A stretch of DNA of 64,000 nt from Sarea resinae (lineage: Eukaryota): contig JAPEUD010000003.1 in the NCBI GenBank assembly GCA_026026165.1, positions 310,001 to 374,000 of the forward strand, read 5' to 3'. Both the position numbers and the translations under genes were made by a program. Positions 16,976 through 30,900 of the stretch are shown in pieces (positions within the stretch are counted from its first letter, which is position 1; each line of letters starts with the position of its first letter). The notes beneath the pieces are model-generated. The model was not told the origin of the DNA, ran no database searches, and saw nothing but the letters and a program-made list of their open reading frames with translations.

Positions 16976-18395
16976 ATGAGTCCTACAAAAGATAGACAAC
17001 TCCTACTACGCTTACCACAAGAGCAGGAGAGTCTACCGTCTGATTGAGAGTATACTTCCTTGGAACCGCGCTGGGCCGTACTTCTCGGAGGTGGTTCTCA
17101 ACCTTGACGCACTAAGCCTTATCGGGAAACATGATATACAGAAGAACACCAACAGTCCAGTTCACACGAAGCTTCTGTACGCCCATTTGTACACTTATCC
17201 CAATCAAGAATTCTTCTGGAGAAAGCAGACTGATAGATCATGCACTTTCGAAACACTTTCAATGTTGACTGATTTCAAGCCGATACCTATTTGCGTCATC
17301 TTGTGCTCAAGGCAGAGCACTAGGAAGAATTGAGCAATATTAACAACGGCATCGTTTGATCTCCAACGTTAGCATAGATACTCTTGAATCTTCGCTCCGT
17401 CTTGAAACTTTGGTTTTCGTTTTTTCCTTGCGCGAATAAAATGTCGGAGGCATAGAAAGACTATTTCCTATTCCTAGCATACGTCTTTCGAGCAGTCTAA
17501 TGAGAACACATTCTTTATGAAGTGATTTTACCATCTGAGCGCAAGAAAAATTGCTGTTTCTCATCAGGTATATAATGCTTGTGGAATGCTGCTCGCGAAC
17601 ACGTTCCGCTTCTAACAGCGATTTAGAATGCGCTACATCATCCGCACTGGAATGTCCTCCTCTCGCGAGACCGACCTCGCACTCGCCGCCTGCGTCTGCG
17701 CGCCTGTCTCTACGACGCGCAACCCAAAAGCGTGCATTGGGCCCGTCATGGTGAGCGCTTTTAATAATATCTCCGGACCTTCGCCAATTCCGGAGCACAA
17801 CCAAGACTGCGACCGCTTTCTAGATATCATCACCAGGGCGGTCGACAAAGCGGTACGAGAACGAAGTGATATGGACCCCGCCGCCACATCTGAAGAGACG
17901 CTTGAAGGAGTCAAGGCACTCCAGACTGGGAAACAGAAGCGGAGGATCTGGAACTTGAGCTCTGGGATCAAGAGGGTCTGGGTTGGGATTCAGAGATGGA
18001 CCAGATAGGCCTCTGTGATCTCGGACAGATGCTATATACGAAGTACTTATGACCAATGATTTGCTGCGTAAAGTTTTGACTGACTCACATTGAACTCAGG
18101 CATACGAATCGTGCGATAGCGTTCAGAGCTTGACCACGCGGCGAATATTCATTCTCTGGTGGAAGAAGGCCTTGCTGAGGACTTTAGGGATGACCAGGGA
18201 AGTGTATTGGTGACCCAAGCAGAGATCGGTACATATCAGCTCATCTTTCTTATTTCCACGTTCGATCTGACAAAATTTGTACCTAGGAACGTGACTGGAT
18301 GCCGCTATGAGCATCATGCATATGAGGATGTGCAATTCTCCTTTGAGATGCCGAAACCATGGCTAATGGGGTCTGAGATGGAGTTTTCGAGATGA
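16976..18395 (+). pseudogene. Probable decayed gene with an N-terminal F-box-like motif
   Basis: ATG..LLLRLPQE, then a frame change at about 17024 to RRVYRLIESILPW (LPxE.R..IY pattern). Downstream coding-like segments (17628-18008, 18159-18395) are in different frames with stops and intron-like signals. Confidence 0.35.
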
Positions 18396-18839
18396 GTGTG
18401 GATGCATTTTATTTGGAGGGGCTTGGCTGGGATGCACTTGGTTGGACAGAGCCGGGCGTTGGAGCGCAATGATACCAATATCCTTGATTGTGTTTTGCAT
18501 AGATGTATTTTATCAACGAATCCTACGTCTAGATTTTAGGAAGACGGAAGGATAACAGGATATTAAGTCAGGTGGTTCAGGGTTCTTAGTAAACATCACA
18601 ATTTTCATGGAATTCGATCATTTTCAAGATAGAGAGAGCATTGAATAGCATGCCTTGACATCACATTTCGTTGCACTGTGTCGTACCGTGAAGGTGTGGC
18701 CTCGCCAGTGTTCGTTATTCGTGCATGGCATGCCCCTAAAGGCCGTCTTGTCCGAAGTGAGACGTTCGACGAATCCTGTAAATCGGCCAATTTATGCCCT
18801 TTTTTCGTCGGACGTCTTAGCATCTGCGACTCTGTAATA

Positions 18840-18905
18840 GTGTGAAGACGGTGCCAAAAAGGTGTTAAAACAGTATCAAACTGGCAGTGAAACGGCATTA
18901 TGATG
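18840..18905. repeat. Degenerate 11-bp tandem repeat (about 6 copies, consensus roughly GTGTCAAAACG)
   Basis: gtgtgaagacg / gtgccaaaaag / gtgttaaaaca / gtatcaaactg / gcagtgaaacg / gcattatgatg. Confidence 0.55.
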
Positions 18906-19228
18906 GATTTGATTGAGTATGCAACTATCTGTGGGGAGAACCTTGCGATTGAAAGGCCCACCATGGTGATACGGAGCCAGGACAGGCCAAGTGAGAGACG
19001 CTCGACCATATTTTATCAAAGACAAGGAAGGTTTGGGGGGTTAACTCTATTGAACGTCTCTCCATCGCCACGAGAGCACTGAGACGTTCGACCCTTTTTC
19101 CAAGAAATCAAACGCAGTTTTGGACGTTTTTCGTTGAACGTCTCAGCCGTCAGAACACTGCTGGGGTGTAGCTAGTATTGATGCATCGATAGATCCACGG
19201 ATGTGAGCGCTGAGGGAACATGAGTCCT

Positions 19229-19420
19229 CAACTTTCAAGTTCCTAAAGGCAAACTTTGAATTCCCTCGAGGCAAACTATGAAGTCCCTAAAGGCAAACTC
19301 TGAAGTCCCCGAAGGCAAACTCTGAAGTCCCTGAAGGCAAAAGTCCCTGAAGGCAAACTTTGCCCTTTGCCCGAAGGCAAACTTCGCCCTTTGCCCGAAA
19401 GCGAAGTTCACCTTTTGCTC
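19229..19420. repeat. Tandem direct repeats: six copies of a 22-mer (AAACTCTGAAGTCCCTGAAGGC, the sixth shortened to 16 nt), then 2-3 copies of a 24-mer (AAACTTYGCCCTTTGCCCGAARGC)
   Basis: Units start at 19229, 19251, 19273, 19295, 19317, 19339, 19355, 19379 and 19403. Most junctions read AGGCAAAC. Confidence 0.93.
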
Positions 19421-19757
19421 TGAGACGTCCGACGATTTTTGACGCAAAAGTAGTTTTCGTACTTTTTCGGTCGAACTCGTGAGACGTTCAACGATTTTGT
19501 GTCAAAACCTCCCAGCTGCCCCGTGAATGCCCCAGTCTACCTAGGTACATACCTCAAGTAATTATGGGTTCTGGGACAAAAATCGTCGAACGTCTCAAGC
19601 AAAAAGGCGGTTCTCTTGAGCCTTGCTTTAGATTTTCTATGGGATTGTGCCTGAAAAGTGAGGTGAACCTGACGGAAAGCAAAATATGCTGAGACGTTCG
19701 ACGACGATATTTGCTAACAATTGAGCTCGCACATTTTCCGTCGAACGTCTCAGTCGG

Positions 19758-19801
19758 ATCAATGTTTAATCAATGTTTAATCAATGTTTGATGAATGTTT
19801 G
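19758..19801. repeat. AT-rich 11-bp tandem repeat x4 (ATCAATGTTTR)
   Basis: atcaatgttta atcaatgttta atcaatgtttg atgaatgtttg, starting 4 nt after the last IR arm. Confidence 0.9.
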
Positions 19802-20153
19802 GGACGCAGTGTGCGTGTAACAGTTTTAGGGAGATTTGGGCTGTTTCCTCGCGCAAGATGGTTGCATGCGAGAAAATTGCTAAATGAAGACGTAGAGATA
19901 TAGCCTAGGTAGACACATTTATGTCCCAGTAGCAAGTGCAATAGTCCTAAAATAAAAGGCCTTGAGTCTCGTTTTGTTCGAGTAAATGTTTATAACAATA
20001 ACACCGCGCCTATGGTTCCCTAAAATGACTCGACCAAGAGAACCACCATTATAAAGGTTCCGACACCAAGGATAGACAATCATTCTCGTATGCTTGCCGC
20101 ATTTCGTGAGCTGCTATAAATATATTCGCTGAATTTCACACCAGTCCGTCCGT

Positions 20154-22875
20154 TTACTCCTCAACGATCTCTTTAAAACTACTTTGTCGTCTATCAATGC
20201 CTCTCCCCCCTCTTTCCCTCCCACTCGCACTCCTCTCCACTCCCGCGCCAGAATGTTGACTTTCCGATCCCTCGCCATCGACTGAGTCATGCGCAGACGG
20301 AAGAGGCGGGCTAACAGGGCTCAGGAGCGCAATTTCAGATTGCAGGCTCGAGACTCTTTCTCTGCCGCTGGCGCTGTCAGGCGTGATGGTAACGTCTGGC
20401 GAACGTAGACTGGTCGCGGAGCTGAGGCTCGATGTGTTGCGAGAGTGTCGAGGGCGTGGATTGAATGTGGAGGGGTTAGAAGGTTGATTCATGAGGTAAC
20501 CTGTCGTGGGGGAGTCTGGGAAGGCTGAATTGGTGGAGCTTTTCGAGGTGGCTCTGTTTGGGTGAAGTAGTGGATTGGAGATCTGACGCATTGGAGGAGA
20601 GGGAAGTTCTGAGGGAATGGATGTGTCTAGCTCGTGTGATGATATCATTAGCATAAATGTCTGCAAGTGCCCTTACAGGTTCTTCAGCAACAATCGATGC
20701 AAAAGCCTTACCAGGTAGTTCATGAATTTCACTGCTACCGGCCTCGTGCGTATCACTTGTCGGTGCTAACGAAGCGTATCCAACGGTGCTAGCAATGGTA
20801 CCCTCATCGCCGGTTGTACCTTCCGTAGAGGTGATTGTCGGCGCCTTACCCCCTACAGGAGGGGTTCCATTAACCCAGCTCATAATGCGTTGCCGATTAC
20901 TATTCGTTCCTGCATGGCTGCTTCCATACGTCCTCTGGTAGCGGTGTCGATACCAGAGGAGCATGCAGAGAATCATAGCTGTGAGGACGATAAGACCTAC
21001 CACAACGCCCACAACAGGGCCGACCCAATTTGGAGTTCCGTGATGATGAGTTGGAGGGGTTGGGAAGACAATCGTGCTCCTTGGAGGACTTGATTGGGTA
21101 GAATTGGCCGGTACAGAGGGATAAGGATAAAATGAAGGAATGGTTTTGCTGTAGCCTACACCAAATAGAGATGAGAGGGTGGGATCACCCCATGTGTTTG
21201 GGCTGGTGGAAGTGGCGGCACCGAGAGCGCTGTGTTGGTTAGCTTTGTCTAAGATTGTGAGAAAGGAGGGAGATTGGGATGCCTTACTTTCCTCCGATCC
21301 TCTTCGTGACTATATCCGGAACCTTGTACTCGGACCACACGTCGGGATCGTAGGAGTCCTGAAATTCTAAGGTATTGAGATTAAAGATCTGGACGATGTT
21401 GTTGCTCAGACACTGGTAGCTGTTGGCTTCCTGGGGCACGCCGCCTACAACAAACATTTGATCTGGATAGACCTTTGCACATTTGTGAGAGTCTCTTCCG
21501 TGAGTAGAGTTCCCCGTATATGCCTTGAGCCAAGTGAAAGATGGGACCGAAAGAATGTAGACATCGTCTGAAGGGTCACTAGAGCTATTGAGCCCATCGT
21601 ACCCACCATAAAAATAGACGTTATGGGAGGAGCTGTCATTAGCTGATGCTAAAATAGAACAAGCCCTTGTGAGTTGTGGTGGATAGTCGCCTGTCGTGTT
21701 TTGTAGGTACCTGTGAATTATCAAGACATAGTTCCTTTGCGTGCCCAACTCACTTACCAGTTCTGAGACGCTATATCGTAGATTGCAATTTCTTTGATGA
21801 AACCAGGGCTCTCGTTTTCCTACAGAGCAAGTTGAGCAATCGGGGACTAGCTAAGTAGATCAGAATAGAACTTACGCTTTGCGTGATCTGTTGGCTATCT
21901 TCCATGAGATAGTATGACTCGGGGTCGACCACTCCGCCTATAGCAAGGAGAATTCCTTGCTCAGATACCGGTACCCAAACAAGTTCAGCATTCGCTCTCC
22001 CTGGTATGTTCGATGGCAGAGTAACATTGGACCATTGCTCGTGACGCATGACGGACATATTGACTGATATGAAGGAATTCGCAATCGTTGTTGCATTATA
22101 CTCTGGCCGGCCTTGAACTCGAATTTCCCCCCAGTCAGCTCGCCGCATGCCACTGAAATAAAAACCCATGTTTTCAGAGGGAACATTGACGCCGGCTCCA
22201 CCAGTCACATATGTCGTCATGTTACTTGGCAAGAGGCCGTCGTAGAAGCCAGCAGTCCAAGATTCTCTATATGGTCCATATTGATAACGTTCATACCCAA
22301 GGACAGATGTTGCTGGAGGTGGACTAAGGCTATCAGTATCTCGGATCAAGCCCCCGTACAGATAGAACTCGTCAGTATTTGCAAACATCATCCCATCATA
22401 GTAGTCAGGGGCTAAATTGTTGCCCGCTCCGGCGGTCTTCGGCAGAGTGGTGAAGATGTCACTGGCATTTTGGGATGTGTTGAAAGGACGAGTGAAGTTC
22501 AACGCATATAGGACCGAAGTGTCCTCTGAAGCCTGTTAGCTGGGAAAACGTGAGTACAATCGAAGAGCTACCAGGCTGATCAACAGCGCCCACAGAGCCG
22601 TTTGCAAACCCGGGCAGAAATCCTAGCCATCCGCCATCCAAATATAACGTATCCCTGATGACAGCGGCTTGGGAAGCATTAGCATCATCTCATACTACCA
22701 CGGCCGTCTAAGATGATTTACCCCGAGGCTGCTGCCACCAGCATAAACTGGTATTTATTTGATTTGGCTCCCAGTCTCGACGAAAAATGGAAACTTCCGC
22801 CTCAGGTAGAGGCTCTGTCGTAGCCAACGGCCAGGGAGCGCAGAAAGCGGCAAAGAATACCAGTAATTTGTACAT
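20154..22875 (-). CDS. Type I membrane protein with a kelch/galactose-oxidase-like beta-propeller ectodomain; about 7 exons
   Basis: Signal peptide MYKLLVFFAAFCAPWPLATT. Kelch-like motifs LYLDGG, YLYGG, LLAIGG, YFYGGYDG..DDVYILSVPSFTW and MFVVGG. TM segment VVGVVVGLIVLTAMILCMLLWY followed by RHRYQR, then a Ser/Pro-rich tail. Confidence 0.85.
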
Positions 22876-24977: not shown

Positions 24978-27900
24978 ATGCGCTCTCTTTTTCTATCAAC
25001 TATAGCTGCATTGCAACTTTCAGGGGTGCTCGGTGACTCTGCAAGCGGCAATTGGACATCCTCCACCGCAAACCCACTATCAGGGACGACGGTAGGCGTA
25101 TCTCCATCGCAGTTTCCGGAAAATTGACTGATCTTCTTGCGTTCTAGACGTTATCCGGCGATACTTCAATATGTGGTACAGCCACCGTAACCTACATCAC
25201 GACTACCACGGTCTCAGGCGTGGGGCAGACGGTGACCGCTACGTCAACGGAATTCTCTACAGTCAGCGAGACAATTACACAAAGGTGGGAAGATTTGGTG
25301 ACATTATTTCTCTCCAGTGCTGAAAGGGACTATTAGCATTACGGAATCCTCGAGCTCATTAATTGCTAGCTCAACGCTCTGGAGCTCGTCGCCTGCGACT
25401 TCGACACCGTCGGTTCTCCCACCCCCAAGCTCAACTCCGTGGAGCTCATCATCTGCGGCTTCAACGCCTTGGAGTTCTTCTTCTGCGACTTCAACCCCAT
25501 GGAGCTCTTCCTCTCCAACATCAAGCTCTTGGAGCTCTTCCGATGTAAGCTCAACACATTGGAGCTCCTCGCATCCGAGTTCGACTTCATGGAGTTCCAC
25601 AACAAGTCAGCAGTCTTCGACCAAGCCAGCCACAGTCTATAATAATTATACTGTGACTGATACAACCACTGAGTACTGCACAGTCAGTGAGACGATTACT
25701 CAAAAGTACAGTGCTTGTATCTGTATAGGATTCTCTTATTGACTGTTTGCTCTAGCTATACTGTAACTCTTTCACCAACAAGCAGGCCCACTACAATCTT
25801 CAAAAATTCAACTGTGACAGAGACTGAGACCGACTACTCTACAGTCAGCATACCGTATACACAGAAGTACAGATTTTCCTCCATAAACCTTGACCGAATC
25901 TAACAGAGCTAATAACAGTTTCACCTCCACGATATCTTCGAAGTGCTTGTCGACCCCGTATCCGAACGAAACTATCACAAGTACGACTACGGAGTACTGT
26001 ACTGTCAGCACAACAGTCACTCAGAAGTAAGAGAAGCATTCATTTTGCTCAATACTACTTTCCTATGCTAATCTCGTCTTGCAGCTACACGACAACTCCG
26101 ACTCCCACTGGTTGGCCAAGTACAAAGTGGAGTAACACAACAGTATTGTAAGAACCACGATCCCACCTTTCTTCGAGACAGTAGGCTGACAATCACAAGC
26201 ATTACTGAAGTATGGACTGTTGATATCTATAACACGGTCACGGATACGACCACTGAGGACGTCCTCACCACTACTACTAAAGACGTCGATATCTTGAGCA
26301 CGCTTACTGAAACCATTTACGACACGACTACAGATGATATTTACAGTACCACCACTGAGGACATCTACAGTACAACTACAGATGATATCTACAGTACTAC
26401 TACGAAGGACATCTACAGTACCACCACGGATAATGTTTATATCACTTTAACAAAGAATCTTTGGAACACTACGACCGAGAAGATCTACAGCACGATTACT
26501 GAAGACATCATAAGCACCGTGACTGAAGACGTTTACATTACGACTACGGAAGATGTCTACTCCACAGCTACAACAAGTATCACCGATAGCTTGTTCATTA
26601 CAACAACAGCGACCGACGATATATATAGCACTGATACTACCACTATTACTGATGATGTTTTTAGCACAATTACTTCTATTACTACTGATGAAATCTTCAG
26701 CCCGGTTACTACAACCGCTACGATTACGACCACGGATGATGTCTTCAGCACAGCTACCATCACTACTACCGATGATGTTTACAGCACTGCGACAACAACT
26801 GCTACGACAACCGCGACAGATGACATCTACAGCACAGCTACAACAGTCGCTACAACAACTGCCACACTCACAACCACAGACAATATCTACAGCACTGCCA
26901 CAACAACTGCCACAACAATTACTACAGATAACATATACAAAACAACAACCGAGACCGATGAAGACTATAGCACAGTCACAACGACAGATGATATCTATAG
27001 CACAAAGACAACTACAGACGACATCTTCAGCACTCTTACAGCAACTGATACAATCTACAGCACTGCTACTACTACTAATGATGTATACGTCACGGATGCA
27101 ACAACAGTAGATATTTACAGTACTGTGTCGACAACTCTAGATGTGACAACAACTGATTTGTGGGCTCCGCAATATTCTTAGCTTTAAGAACTATTTCATT
27201 GACAGGTCTTAGCGTCCTGAGTCCGACTACCATCGAATTGATAAGCACGACAACGCAAGATATTTACACTACTCAGACCTCGGAGATTACGACGACTCAA
27301 TTGTAAGTCTTTGTTGTCTTTTTTTCACCTCACCCCTCGGGTCTCCGCTTGCGTCGATTTTTCTTGAAAGAACGCTCGACGGAGGAATCTTACGATTTTT
27401 TGGCCGAACAAAGAAAAGAGGCGAGCTATTTGCAGGAAGCCTTTACTAACGAGCCTTTTCTTCTCAGCACTACGGATTATGTTACAAGAAATGTCACCTC
27501 GATATTCACGTCGACTTTCTCATGTCAGTAGAGTCGGATCTCACAATCGAGTAGCTTGGCTGATTTATCTCAAGACCCCGTAACGACTACTTCCACCGTT
27601 GATCATACGTCCATTGTTAGCGAAATATACTAGTAGGTATTCTGATCCATAGCCTTTCGTGAAATTGACGGTCATCTAGTTCAACAACCACTGTGCTGGT
27701 AACTACAATAGTTCCCACGACTATACTCATAACCGTTCCCACGACGGTCCCTACAACGATCCGCACGACGATTCCTACTACAGTCGCTACAACAGTCCCT
27801 ACTACAGAAATTGAAGACGTGACAACCACGTCAGACATATACATATATAGGAGCTCGGTCTACACGTCGTTCGTTTCTTGTGAGTAGATACCTAGGTTGC

Positions 27901-30900
27901 AATTAGTCAAACACTGACACATTAGCAGTCCCGGTAACATATACAGTGACAACTTCCGATAGCTTTCCCATTACAGTTGTCTCTTAGTAAGTGGAACATT
28001 CCCTCATCATGTTTGTCGGTCCTACAAGAGGACATCTCTCTTTCATGAAAAGAGATTCATACCACAACATCCTAGCATTGATAGAAGAGAAGGTTTCCCC
28101 TGCGCTTCCTTTGCTTTACTTCGATTTCTGTCTTTCAAATGAAGAGAGGACTTGGCTAATCGCTTATGATATTCCAGCTCAACAACGACTTCTGTATATA
28201 CGTCAATAGCTACGTTGACTGCCACCACGACCGAAGAGCTCACCACGACGGTGGCAAGTGGATACACTACTGTAGAAACAAGCTATATTGATATTGTTTC
28301 GCCGACGACTACTACTGTCGATATCACCGATTTCAGCACGATTGATTACACTACGACAGCTGTTTCAACATCAACACTGACGTCTGTGGTTGAAGGTGAG
28401 CTTATATAAAGAACTAGAAAGCTCTAATACTAACAGCAATACCAGTTATCATAACCTCAGCGACTACGGTCTCAGGTTCAGTGTCGACTGATATAATTAC
28501 GTACGTTCACTTGCGTGTGGTTCTTTATCCGAGCTAATTGCTGGAAGTTCTTTATCAACTACGTATATTCCTACCACCGTGACTTCAACTGCAATTATCG
28601 AATCTATATGTAAGCCATAGCTTTTTACATCTTTGGACTTTTTATGCGTCTCGATTTGATCTGAAAGTTTCTTTCGTATTACGTCTCCAAATCACCGGGT
28701 AGCTTGGCAAATCCTTTTACCCTTAAGTGTTTTACTAGAGCGACTATTGCTAGCACGATTCTGACACGGGTCTTTAGCTCCTACTACTATTATCGAGCCG
28801 ACTACCATAATGAAGACTACACTAGTAACGGATGTAGTAACTTCCCTCACCACCGTAGCCTCTGGTCTTGTTTACTCAACCAGTTATACAACTTCATATA
28901 CGACCGTATACAGCTGCGCTCCCAATGTTACCGGATGTGACATCAACAGCACAAAAACAGTTCCTGTCACGGTAACGGCAGAGACTATTGTCCCTACGAC
29001 CATCTATGTCCCTGGTTCTACTTTAACGGTAACTTCTACGACTGAGGAAGTCCTTCCACCTTCAACAATAACAATCTCGGACGATGTCACTCGTACAATT
29101 CCCGCGACCACTTACTACGTGACAGGCACTGAAATCATTACTGTTCCTCCAACCACCATAATTGATACTGAGACCTTGACTTCTATTCAAATCACTACAT
29201 TCGTGGAGACCACAAGCTTATTTGGTCAAACTGATACGATCACCGCGTCAGGGCCCACGATCACTGATACTCTACCGGGAACTACAGATGTCATCACTTT
29301 ATCTGGTTCAACCGTGACAACGTCGGTGCCCGGTCCTACTGATATCATTACCCAGACAGAAGACATTACATTGTCCGGCTCGACAGTAACGACATCGCTT
29401 CTTGGGCCAACAGATTTTGTTACAGCGACAGATGACATCACATTGCCCGGCTTAACGGTCACCACGTCGATTCACGGGGCTACGCTTATTGGTACGACTA
29501 CAGACTATATCACCTTATCCGGATCAACCGTGACAACATCACTACCAGGGGTGACGCTTATTAGTACCAAGACTGAAGACATTACGTTGTCCGGTCCAAC
29601 AGTGACACTCTCGTTGGCTACGGTAACGAAGATCAGTACTGAAACGGCCACGACAACTCTGCCTCTAAGCATAATTACAGACGTCATTACTCAATCGGGC
29701 TCGATCGAGACGACTACACTATCAGGAGCTACGGTCGTCGTTACAGACACAGAAACAGTCTCAGGATCTACGGAGATTACTACTGCAACGGACACAGTCT
29801 CAGGGCCCCCGGGAATTAGAACTATTACCGATACAGTCTCGGGATCTTTGGGAATCATCACCACTACAGACACAGTTTCAGGGTCTGCTTTGACAACTAC
29901 TGCAACGGACACGGTCTCAGGATCCCTAGGGACAAGTACTATCACCGACACAGTCTTTGGATCTACAGTAGCAACTACTGCAACGGACATAGTCTCAGGA
30001 CCATCGAGAATCACGACCGTCACAGATACAGGATTCCTGGGAACCAGAACCATTACAGATATAAGTTTGGGAACTTCTGGAATCAGTACTATTACAAACA
30101 TACTCTCGGGACCTACAGCAACTACTACTGCAACAGACATAGTCTCGGGATCCACAGGAGTCTCTGACACAGTCTCGGGTTCCACAGGAGTCAGCACCGT
30201 CACAGATGTGATTTCCGGATCTACTGGTATCATATCTGCCCCTACAGATACTGTCATAGTATCTGGAGCTACCTCGATAGCGACCGATTATAGTATGTGA
30301 AATGCTCACCTTGAAAGTCTTTCTAGCTAACCCTCGATAGTACCTGGTACTGTCTTTGTTACTTTACCCCAGATTACGGTCACTCAGTCCGGTAAGGGAT
30401 CATTGGCGTTGGCTTTCTGTGACCATCGCGGATGTCTGACTTTCTTTAGCAGCTATCGAGACAGTTTTCGTTACTCTTAGTGGGGGCTCGTCCAGTAAGT
30501 GATATCAGTCCTGATTGACCAGAGCCTTTCGTCTAATATGAAACCAAAGTGATCGGCGCCACCTCGACTGAAACGTTGACCGTCCCCGTAACAACCGCCA
30601 TTACGGCTTCAGTCTCTGGCGGCACGACATTATTGACATTGACCGGCTCGGAATCAACGGGGACGACAATACCTGGCACCCCAACAACAGGCGTCGCCTC
30701 AACTTCACCACTTACCACTCTCACAACAAAGATGAGATCTGATTTAGGAGCAGGCCCTCAAACTATCACCTTTACTTCCTTAGAACCACTTCCTTCGATT
30801 GTTGTATGCCCCAAACTCTACACAAATCCAACATACAACCCAGTAAGCTCTTTGCCTCGCAATTACACATGGGGCTGTCCGCCGGCATACCTCTGTGAAC

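Follow-up and report, generated by a model that had tools for sequence, protein, structure and literature searches.

Bacterial REP/BIME/REPIN sequences are short palindromic words arranged in inverted pairs around less-conserved spacers, which build mosaics behind genes with as many as twelve copies, lack target duplications, and are associated with the RAYT enzyme. Integron attC sites have lengths of tens to about 140 bp. In fungi, mimp and Guest are MITEs, and members of the named fungal MITE families (EFT, mimp, and Guest) are about 100 bp or more in length. The EFT families of Epichloe are degenerate fungal MITEs (PMC3227409), and the symmetric stwintrons of the Xylariales are reported to insert seamlessly, without flanking duplications (PMC8469720, PMC12403724).

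In the 64-kb window considered here (the whole stretch of DNA that was analyzed), the word TGAGACGTTCGACGA occurs twelve times at positions 18758-19752, six times per strand, in a strict left/right alternation that yields six units. Our best explanation, to which we assign a probability of about 0.5, is that this array represents a six-copy pile-up of a 50-66-bp MITE/REPIN-like selfish repeat downstream of a gene. Selfish, transposon-like DNA, rather than a regulatory or integron-like array, is the most likely identity of the array; an origin of the transposon type had been among the options of an earlier reading made from the letters of the DNA (hereafter the sequence-only reading), and we retain it.

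The units are similar to fungal MITEs in that they are short, non-coding, and apparently multi-copy, have terminal inverted repeats (TIRs) that are their best-kept part, have degenerate interiors that fall into sub-families, and collect in intergenic DNA near genes. All six units in the window have TIRs as expected of a MITE, and they also agree with one in size (58-118 bp) and in being non-coding. However, they differ from the fungal MITEs in being only 50-68 bp, in having no target-site duplication, and in being packed in same-facing arrays. As a consequence of the missing duplication the element fails one of the defining features of a MITE and should not be filed as one, though it is MITE-like in behavior. 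The likeness to the REP/BIME/REPIN sequences is one of architecture, with a short palindromic word in inverted pairs, variable spacers, mosaics behind genes, and no target duplication. In this case the difference lies in the host, which is a eukaryote rather than a bacterium based on an SDR protein that groups with those of the Ascomycota and on fungal protein families, and in the 15+15 pattern of the arms having no matches (0) in a prokaryote genome collection.

There is also some resemblance to the symmetric introns and stwintrons of the Xylariales and to introner elements, which are likewise fungal, have an intron size of about 60 bp, have inverted-repeat ends, and lack flanking duplications, whereas those elements reside in genes and are spliced and the units here are intergenic (PMC8469720, PMC12403724, PMC9860276). 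A GT start, using the preceding G, is possible in three of the six units. The words GAGACG and CGTCTC have no occurrences in the main texts of PMC8469720 and PMC12403724.

The conserved inverted cores around a variable center, the size range, and the ability to form hairpins are reminiscent of the attC sites of integrons, a comparison also made by the sequence-only reading. We reject it, as the gaps between the units are non-coding stretches of 0-275 bp without gene cassettes, no integrase family was found in the 35 window ORFs scanned, and the host is a eukaryote. The accompanying proposal that the arms are the sub-terminal repeats of a CACTA or hAT element fared no better, since there is no CACTA end (the ends read TGAGACG), duplications of 3 bp and 8 bp are absent both around 18758/19752 and around every cognate pair of arms, and the units are of unequal age. 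A tRNA-derived SINE or an Rfam RNA family was rejected as well: covariance models gave no Rfam match above noise (the best being mir-249 with 19.5 bits relative to a gathering score of 70, E 0.83) and ARAGORN identified 0 tRNA genes in the window. In the openly accessible main texts on fungal foldback, palindromic, and MITE elements neither the motif nor the architecture is described, and the three papers in which the two 12-mers occur do not concern fungal repeats. The family may be catalogued already in repeat libraries.

Genomic Context of the Array

The window comes from the nuclear genome of an ascomycete and is densely packed with genes. Of its 61 ORFs that are 160 aa or longer, 35 were scanned with Pfam, which identified aconitase, GH47, GH71, Rot1, an importin, and other families, and its SDR protein groups within Ascomycota clusters. 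No transposase or integrase family was found among the 35 ORFs. The stretch containing the array is intergenic and GC-poorer than its surroundings (0.45 vs. 0.50-0.57).

A Kelch-repeat gene is located on the minus strand at 19882-22535, with matches to Kelch families (E 4e-10, under the curated cut-off) and with RNA contigs, and because one RNA contig reaches 19882, about 130 bp from unit 6, the array can be placed just downstream of the 3′ end of this gene. The RNA evidence comprises the contigs of a single run (X2), a wood-decay metatranscriptome of a relative with 96-98% identity, which were found at 18431-18607 and 19882-20627; in the Kelch gene, RNA contigs skip a 58-bp intron from 21229 to 21288. 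No X2 contig lies over the array, which is uninformative as to transcription or splicing of the array, and there were no array matches in runs X3 and X4. The RNA contig at 18431-18607 has six differences in 177 bases and contains no recognizable ORF or family, and this stretch could belong to a UTR or to a non-coding transcript whose end is about 150 bp before unit 1. One ORF of 135 aa (18605-19012, minus strand) does span units 1 and 2; it has no Pfam match.

The gap between units 3 and 4 is occupied by a repeat (19230-19418, of interest here as context only) in which five copies of a 22-bp unit continue into 2.9 copies of a 24-bp unit. The 24-bp unit is itself partly palindromic (GGCAAA..TTTGCC), and its last copy constitutes the bases just left of unit 4 and is mirrored just right of unit 5, the arms of this mirror around units 4-5 being 39 nt and 79% complementary. 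An 11-bp tandem repeat (19758-19800; 3.9 copies, 93% matches) begins 6 bp after unit 6. At 25302-30300 there are long, Ser/Thr-rich, internally repetitive ORFs (e.g., 26072-27181 and 28765-30300) that have no Pfam family and look like fungal cell-wall or adhesin-type repeat proteins.

Structure of the Array and Its Six Units

The ends of all six units in the window are inverted repeats of 15-16 bp, (C)TGAGACGTTCGACGA. With up to two mismatches allowed, the 12-mer GAGACGTTCGAC matched the window at 14 sites, of which 11 lie at 18759-19751; the mean in 100 shuffles was 6.6, and no shuffle reached 14. The one arm of the array that escapes this search is the right arm of unit 4, as a consequence of a 3-nt deletion. 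With the 15-mer and up to three mismatches there were 11 matches in the window, ten inside the array (2.53 expected). When up to four mismatches were allowed, the rest of the window was at the level of shuffles and there were no left/right pairs outside of the array, in agreement with the earlier remark that the motif was not noticed elsewhere in the 64 kb, and a search of 18300-20299 for further decayed units with up to six mismatches identified none beyond chance.

The units in the window are about 58-68 bp long, plus one of 118 bp, and all are oriented here on the plus strand. Unit 1 (18758-18819; 62 bp) has no mismatches in its left arm and two in its right arm, which is preceded by a T-run, and an RNA fold with a z-score of -5.5. 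Unit 2 (18994-19061; 68 bp) is the most decayed, with three mismatches in the left arm, five in the right arm, and a fold z of -1.5, and its outermost T...A is replaced by A...T on both sides. Unit 3 (19080-19145; 66 bp) has two mismatches in the left arm and one in the right (fold z -5.3), and the spacers of units 3 and 4 are homologous (z 4.2). Unit 4 (19421-19478; about 58 bp; fold z +0.6) has one mismatch in its left arm, and its right arm, which carries the 3-nt deletion, abuts unit 5 head to head, creating a near-palindromic junction that is the site of that deletion. Unit 5 (19480-19597; 118 bp; one and zero arm mismatches) has two ends of the T-run type and a stem of 19 nt at 95%, extending to about 22 bp. 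Unit 6 (19690-19752; 63 bp; zero and one arm mismatches) is the youngest-looking of the six and has a perfect 15-bp stem (19689-19703/19739-19753). The twelve alternating arms, the positions of the six units, the deletion in unit 4, and the stems of unit 5 (long) and unit 6 (perfect) had all been described by the sequence-only reading and were verified in our analysis.

A Second Array and the Interiors of the Units

When metagenome contigs were searched for a two-arm pattern that tolerates transitions, 66 loci were obtained, one of which, L022, is a second array. L022 is a fungal-looking contig of 14.9 kb (GC 0.52) that has ten arm matches with up to three mismatches in 1456-2549 (0.18 expected), which represent about seven units of 43-58 bp; TRF detected no tandem array on this contig. 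The array is situated between an AP-endonuclease-2/xylose-isomerase-like gene and a sugar-transporter gene, and the two genes appear to converge on it, judging by the matched profile positions. There is no homology between the flanks of L022 and those of the window at the DNA or the protein level. The contig may derive from the same or a very close organism, and it is therefore uncertain that it represents an independent lineage.

The sequence-only reading held that the spacers of the units differ beyond a loose T-tract/A-tract character. That is not the case, as the five short spacers of the window are homologous, aligning better than all 500 composition-preserving shuffles (0/500 reach the observed mean). 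The within-array alignment of the L022 spacers likewise beats 500 of 500 shuffles. It had also been remarked that spacers aligning well with each other would speak against the novelty of the array, and on this point the outcome is mixed, as the alignment of the spacers exists but is weak. A T-run follows most of the left arms, and the right arms, when read inward, are followed by an A-run and a short common stretch; the short spacers of the window comprise T-runs and a common subterminal stretch beside the right arm. The similarity of the spacers exists only in direct orientation (z 3.6 and 6.0, as against -2.9 and 2.2 when inverted), from which it follows that each unit is a complete, polar copy, and within an array all of the polar units point one way. 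When the spacers of the window were compared with those of L022 no match was found (427 of 500 shuffles were equally good). The two arrays are different sub-families that have their ends alone in common.

The DNA between the units is informative as to how the arrays grew. The linkers of the window are mutually unrelated (all |z| <2), on which grounds we rejected tandem duplication as the origin of its units; the six are better explained by separate arrivals. In L022, the linkers of the neighboring units Cb and D are homologous (61% identity, z 5.6), as are those of units E and F (57%, z 4.1), with the remaining pairs at z <2, indicating that local duplication of a unit together with its linker added copies to this array.

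Decay of the Arms

Substitutions were counted in 24 arms (11 from the window and 13 from L022), a set that omits the right arm of unit 4 and the left arm of Cb in L022, both of which have been destroyed outright. There were 48 substitutions, 32 of them transitions and 21 of them changes of CpG to TpG or CpA at the three CpGs of the arm, and some changes recurred independently (G11A eight times and C13T six times). The number of changes per arm varied from 0 to 5, which implies that the copies are of different age. Two observations of the sequence-only reading are upheld, that most arm substitutions are transitions (11 of 16 in the window) and that the arms are better conserved than the interiors. 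What was concluded from the conserved arms, namely selection on the arms and their spacing at the locus, is not supported, since the arms are decaying by CpG transitions (21/48 substitutions).

Nor are the left and right arms coupled; they change independently. In an alignment of ten units (omitting unit 4 and units C and Cb of L022), 86.0% of the cells were paired relative to 84.4% in shuffles, and 64 of 500 shuffles were as good. The same alignment contained two double-sided pair changes in the stems, as in shuffles, and the covariation score was reached by 116 of 500 shuffles. Selection at the locus is thus not apparent: once inserted, the arms decay, mainly at CpGs, without covariation. 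For annotation, the lesson is that conserved arms with drifting spacers need not imply selection at a locus, as the same pattern arises from piled-up copies of differing sub-families and ages.

Another idea is that a DNA-binding protein of the host, such as a boundary/insulator factor or a regulator, docks at the arms and that the array is a functional intergenic element. We consider this explanation unlikely. It would account for a 15-bp word that is far better kept than its surroundings, and for both arrays being downstream of genes, with that of L022 between genes that converge if the profile positions are a guide; however, the arms decay at CpGs and in some cases are destroyed, the spacing is irregular both within pairs and between them (0 to 275 bp between units), the homology and polarity of the interiors are those of copied elements, and the motif is missing from the rest of the gene-dense 64 kb. 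The arm word does contain GTTCGA, which we take to be the core of the RNA polymerase III B-box, but by eye the agreement with the B-box ends after six of 11 positions. As GTTCGA is all that is shared with the consensus, the idea of a B-box bound by TFIIIC is kept as no more than a minor alternative.

Dispersal in the Source Genome

When contigs of run X1, the probable source run, were aligned to the region, the fit was partial in ten of the 13 that aligned. Two records from other contigs match 19118-19146 plus 19729-19753, and 19413-19448, and are unlike the window beyond these positions; the part that is shared consists of one arm with up to about 13 adjacent bases. In general, other contigs share at most about 36 bp with the block and then diverge. 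Other loci have a left-type arm, 18 different letters, and a right-type arm, or a right-type end, 13 letters, and a left-type end, the latter arrangement indicating that units adjoin each other elsewhere too, and in one record two right-type ends are about 350 bp apart. Summed depth increased from 370 to 500-678 in the bins that bear arms, with no rise in the bins of the 22-bp tandem repeat, and the 22/24-bp tandem repeat showed no extra depth in other source-genome contigs. The number of copies in the genome can be stated only roughly, as it was judged from contig fragments. The repeat family is dispersed in the source genome, and the element, being found at other loci, is not single-copy; a single unconserved, untranscribed copy had been named by the sequence-only reading as an argument against a function.

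An improbable alternative is that all of the roughly 1-kb block constitutes a single composite, non-autonomous transposon of a foldback-, CACTA-, hAT-, or Mutator-like kind, in which the 15-mer would be a repeated sub-terminal binding site for a transposase and the outermost arms the true ends. The two arrays are indeed of similar size (about 1.0-1.1 kb), each opening with a left arm and closing with a right arm (18758/19752 in the window and 1456/2549 in L022), the first left and last right arms of the block agree at 14 of 14 positions, and both the adjacent arms at other loci and the two right-type ends about 350 bp apart could belong to a larger element. However, the block has no flanking duplication (for the left arm of unit 1 and the right arm of unit 6 there is only a 3-bp match at a shifted offset), the similarity to other contigs stops after at most about 36 bp, the arms are all that the two arrays share, and the units are unequal in decay and therefore in age.

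Target Sites and the Mode of Spread

We propose that the array was built by a very short non-coding repeat with inverted ends, which would act like a miniature inverted-repeat or foldback element or a eukaryotic look-alike of the REP/REPIN sequences. The ends would be needed for propagation and would thus be constant along an active lineage, while the interior would drift into sub-families; a copy that has landed would no longer be maintained and would decay, mainly at its three CpGs. The apparent conservation of the ends would accordingly come about because spreading continues only in lineages whose ends are intact, and not from a need for them at the locus. Copies would collect in intergenic DNA downstream of genes, in the window by repeated insertion beside earlier copies and in L022 also by local duplication of a unit with its linker. 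We infer from these features mobility itself, an enzyme that recognizes the ends, and a preference for sites beside earlier copies.

Several results run counter to this selfish-repeat explanation. Flanks of 2-10 bp at four offsets were compared for target-site duplications, and none was present at the cognate arm pairs of the window, including those of the near-perfect units 5 and 6; in L022 there were only A/A (3 bp) and D/D (2 bp), which are at chance level, and none at unit G. The duplication is therefore missing even from the youngest units (5, 6, and G of L022). An autonomous partner or transposase is absent from the 35 window ORFs that were scanned, and the uniform orientation within an array is not predicted by random independent insertion. 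As there is no target-site duplication, the spread of the repeat was probably not by ordinary staggered-cut DDE transposition, and the route could be either via an end-recognizing enzyme that leaves no duplication or a copying-in of units during break repair.

A more specific, and doubtful, version of the first route is that the family is the fungal counterpart of the REP/BIME-REPIN sequences, i.e., a hairpin of 50-65 bp with fixed polarity and no target-site duplication, which would spread as structured, perhaps single-stranded, DNA via an enzyme that recognizes hairpin ends rather than a staggered-cut transposase, and whose mosaics behind genes might act as a two-way stop or boundary signal. 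The second route would dispense with a transposase altogether: hairpin-prone repeats would cause replication breaks that are repaired by copying ectopic members of the family or by template switching, and clusters would grow where copies already exist. The lack of target-site duplications, the clustering of copies next to copies, the local duplication in L022, and the head-to-head junction of units 4 and 5 with its small central deletion, as expected of an unstable palindrome, are each consistent with such repair. We nevertheless judge it quite unlikely, since ends that are sharp at the same base in unrelated loci favor an end-recognizing enzyme.

Very unlikely, lastly, is that the units give rise to hairpin RNAs, whether as clustered small-RNA precursors or as structured RNA modules. 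In its favor are the RNA folds of four units, which are much more stable than those of shuffles (z about -5; not so for units 2 and 4), loops whose T-richness is confined to one strand, and several arm mismatches in units 1 and 3 that by eye would be G-U wobbles on the plus strand. Against it, there is no covariation in the stems, the mismatch of unit 5 would be a wobble only on the opposite strand, the DNA hairpins of either strand fold equally well, and the best Rfam score is far below its gathering score. The composite transposon, the protein-docking array, and the hairpin-RNA cluster all fit fewer facts than the selfish-repeat explanation. If the family is as it looks, then few inverted-repeat elements of such shortness have been reported from fungi, and the lack of the target duplication that defines ordinary MITEs would, if our explanation is true, point to an unusual way of spreading. 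The family is in addition a small and easily traced marker for the build-up of hairpin repeats behind genes in eukaryotes.

Other Matches to the Two-Arm Pattern

The other 65 of the 66 metagenome loci were rejected, based on their base composition, number of arms, and flanks, as chance or unrelated matches, mostly bacterial palindromes. For instance, L053 is a hairpin between genes that read by eye as those for ribosomal protein S15 and PNPase, and at L031 a perfect palindrome stands by itself in DNA of bacterial appearance. A scan of viral contigs gave a single match, L001, which is a palindrome within an ORF and was attributed to chance. The L001 ORF (115-567, minus strand) encodes 150 aa, and its start resembles what we take to be a nuclease motif of the GIY-YIG type.

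Two further sets of loci contain palindromes of other kinds. Loci L010, L014, L015, L023, L034, L041, L045, L062, and L066, on contigs whose GC is low to middling, have in common another palindrome, which is nested and built on GAGACGCCCAAC / CTGGGCGTCTC words and is apparently a separate repeat family, probably bacterial, that was caught by the degenerate pattern. Loci L047 and L060 are about 19 kb apart on contig VAPK010206857.1 and contain one 73-bp palindromic unit twice (L050 was noted alongside them); the contigs of these three loci are AT-rich (GC 0.33-0.34). The interior of one copy in the L047/L060 pair is the reverse complement of that of the other, and the pair may be the two ends of an element of roughly 19 kb.
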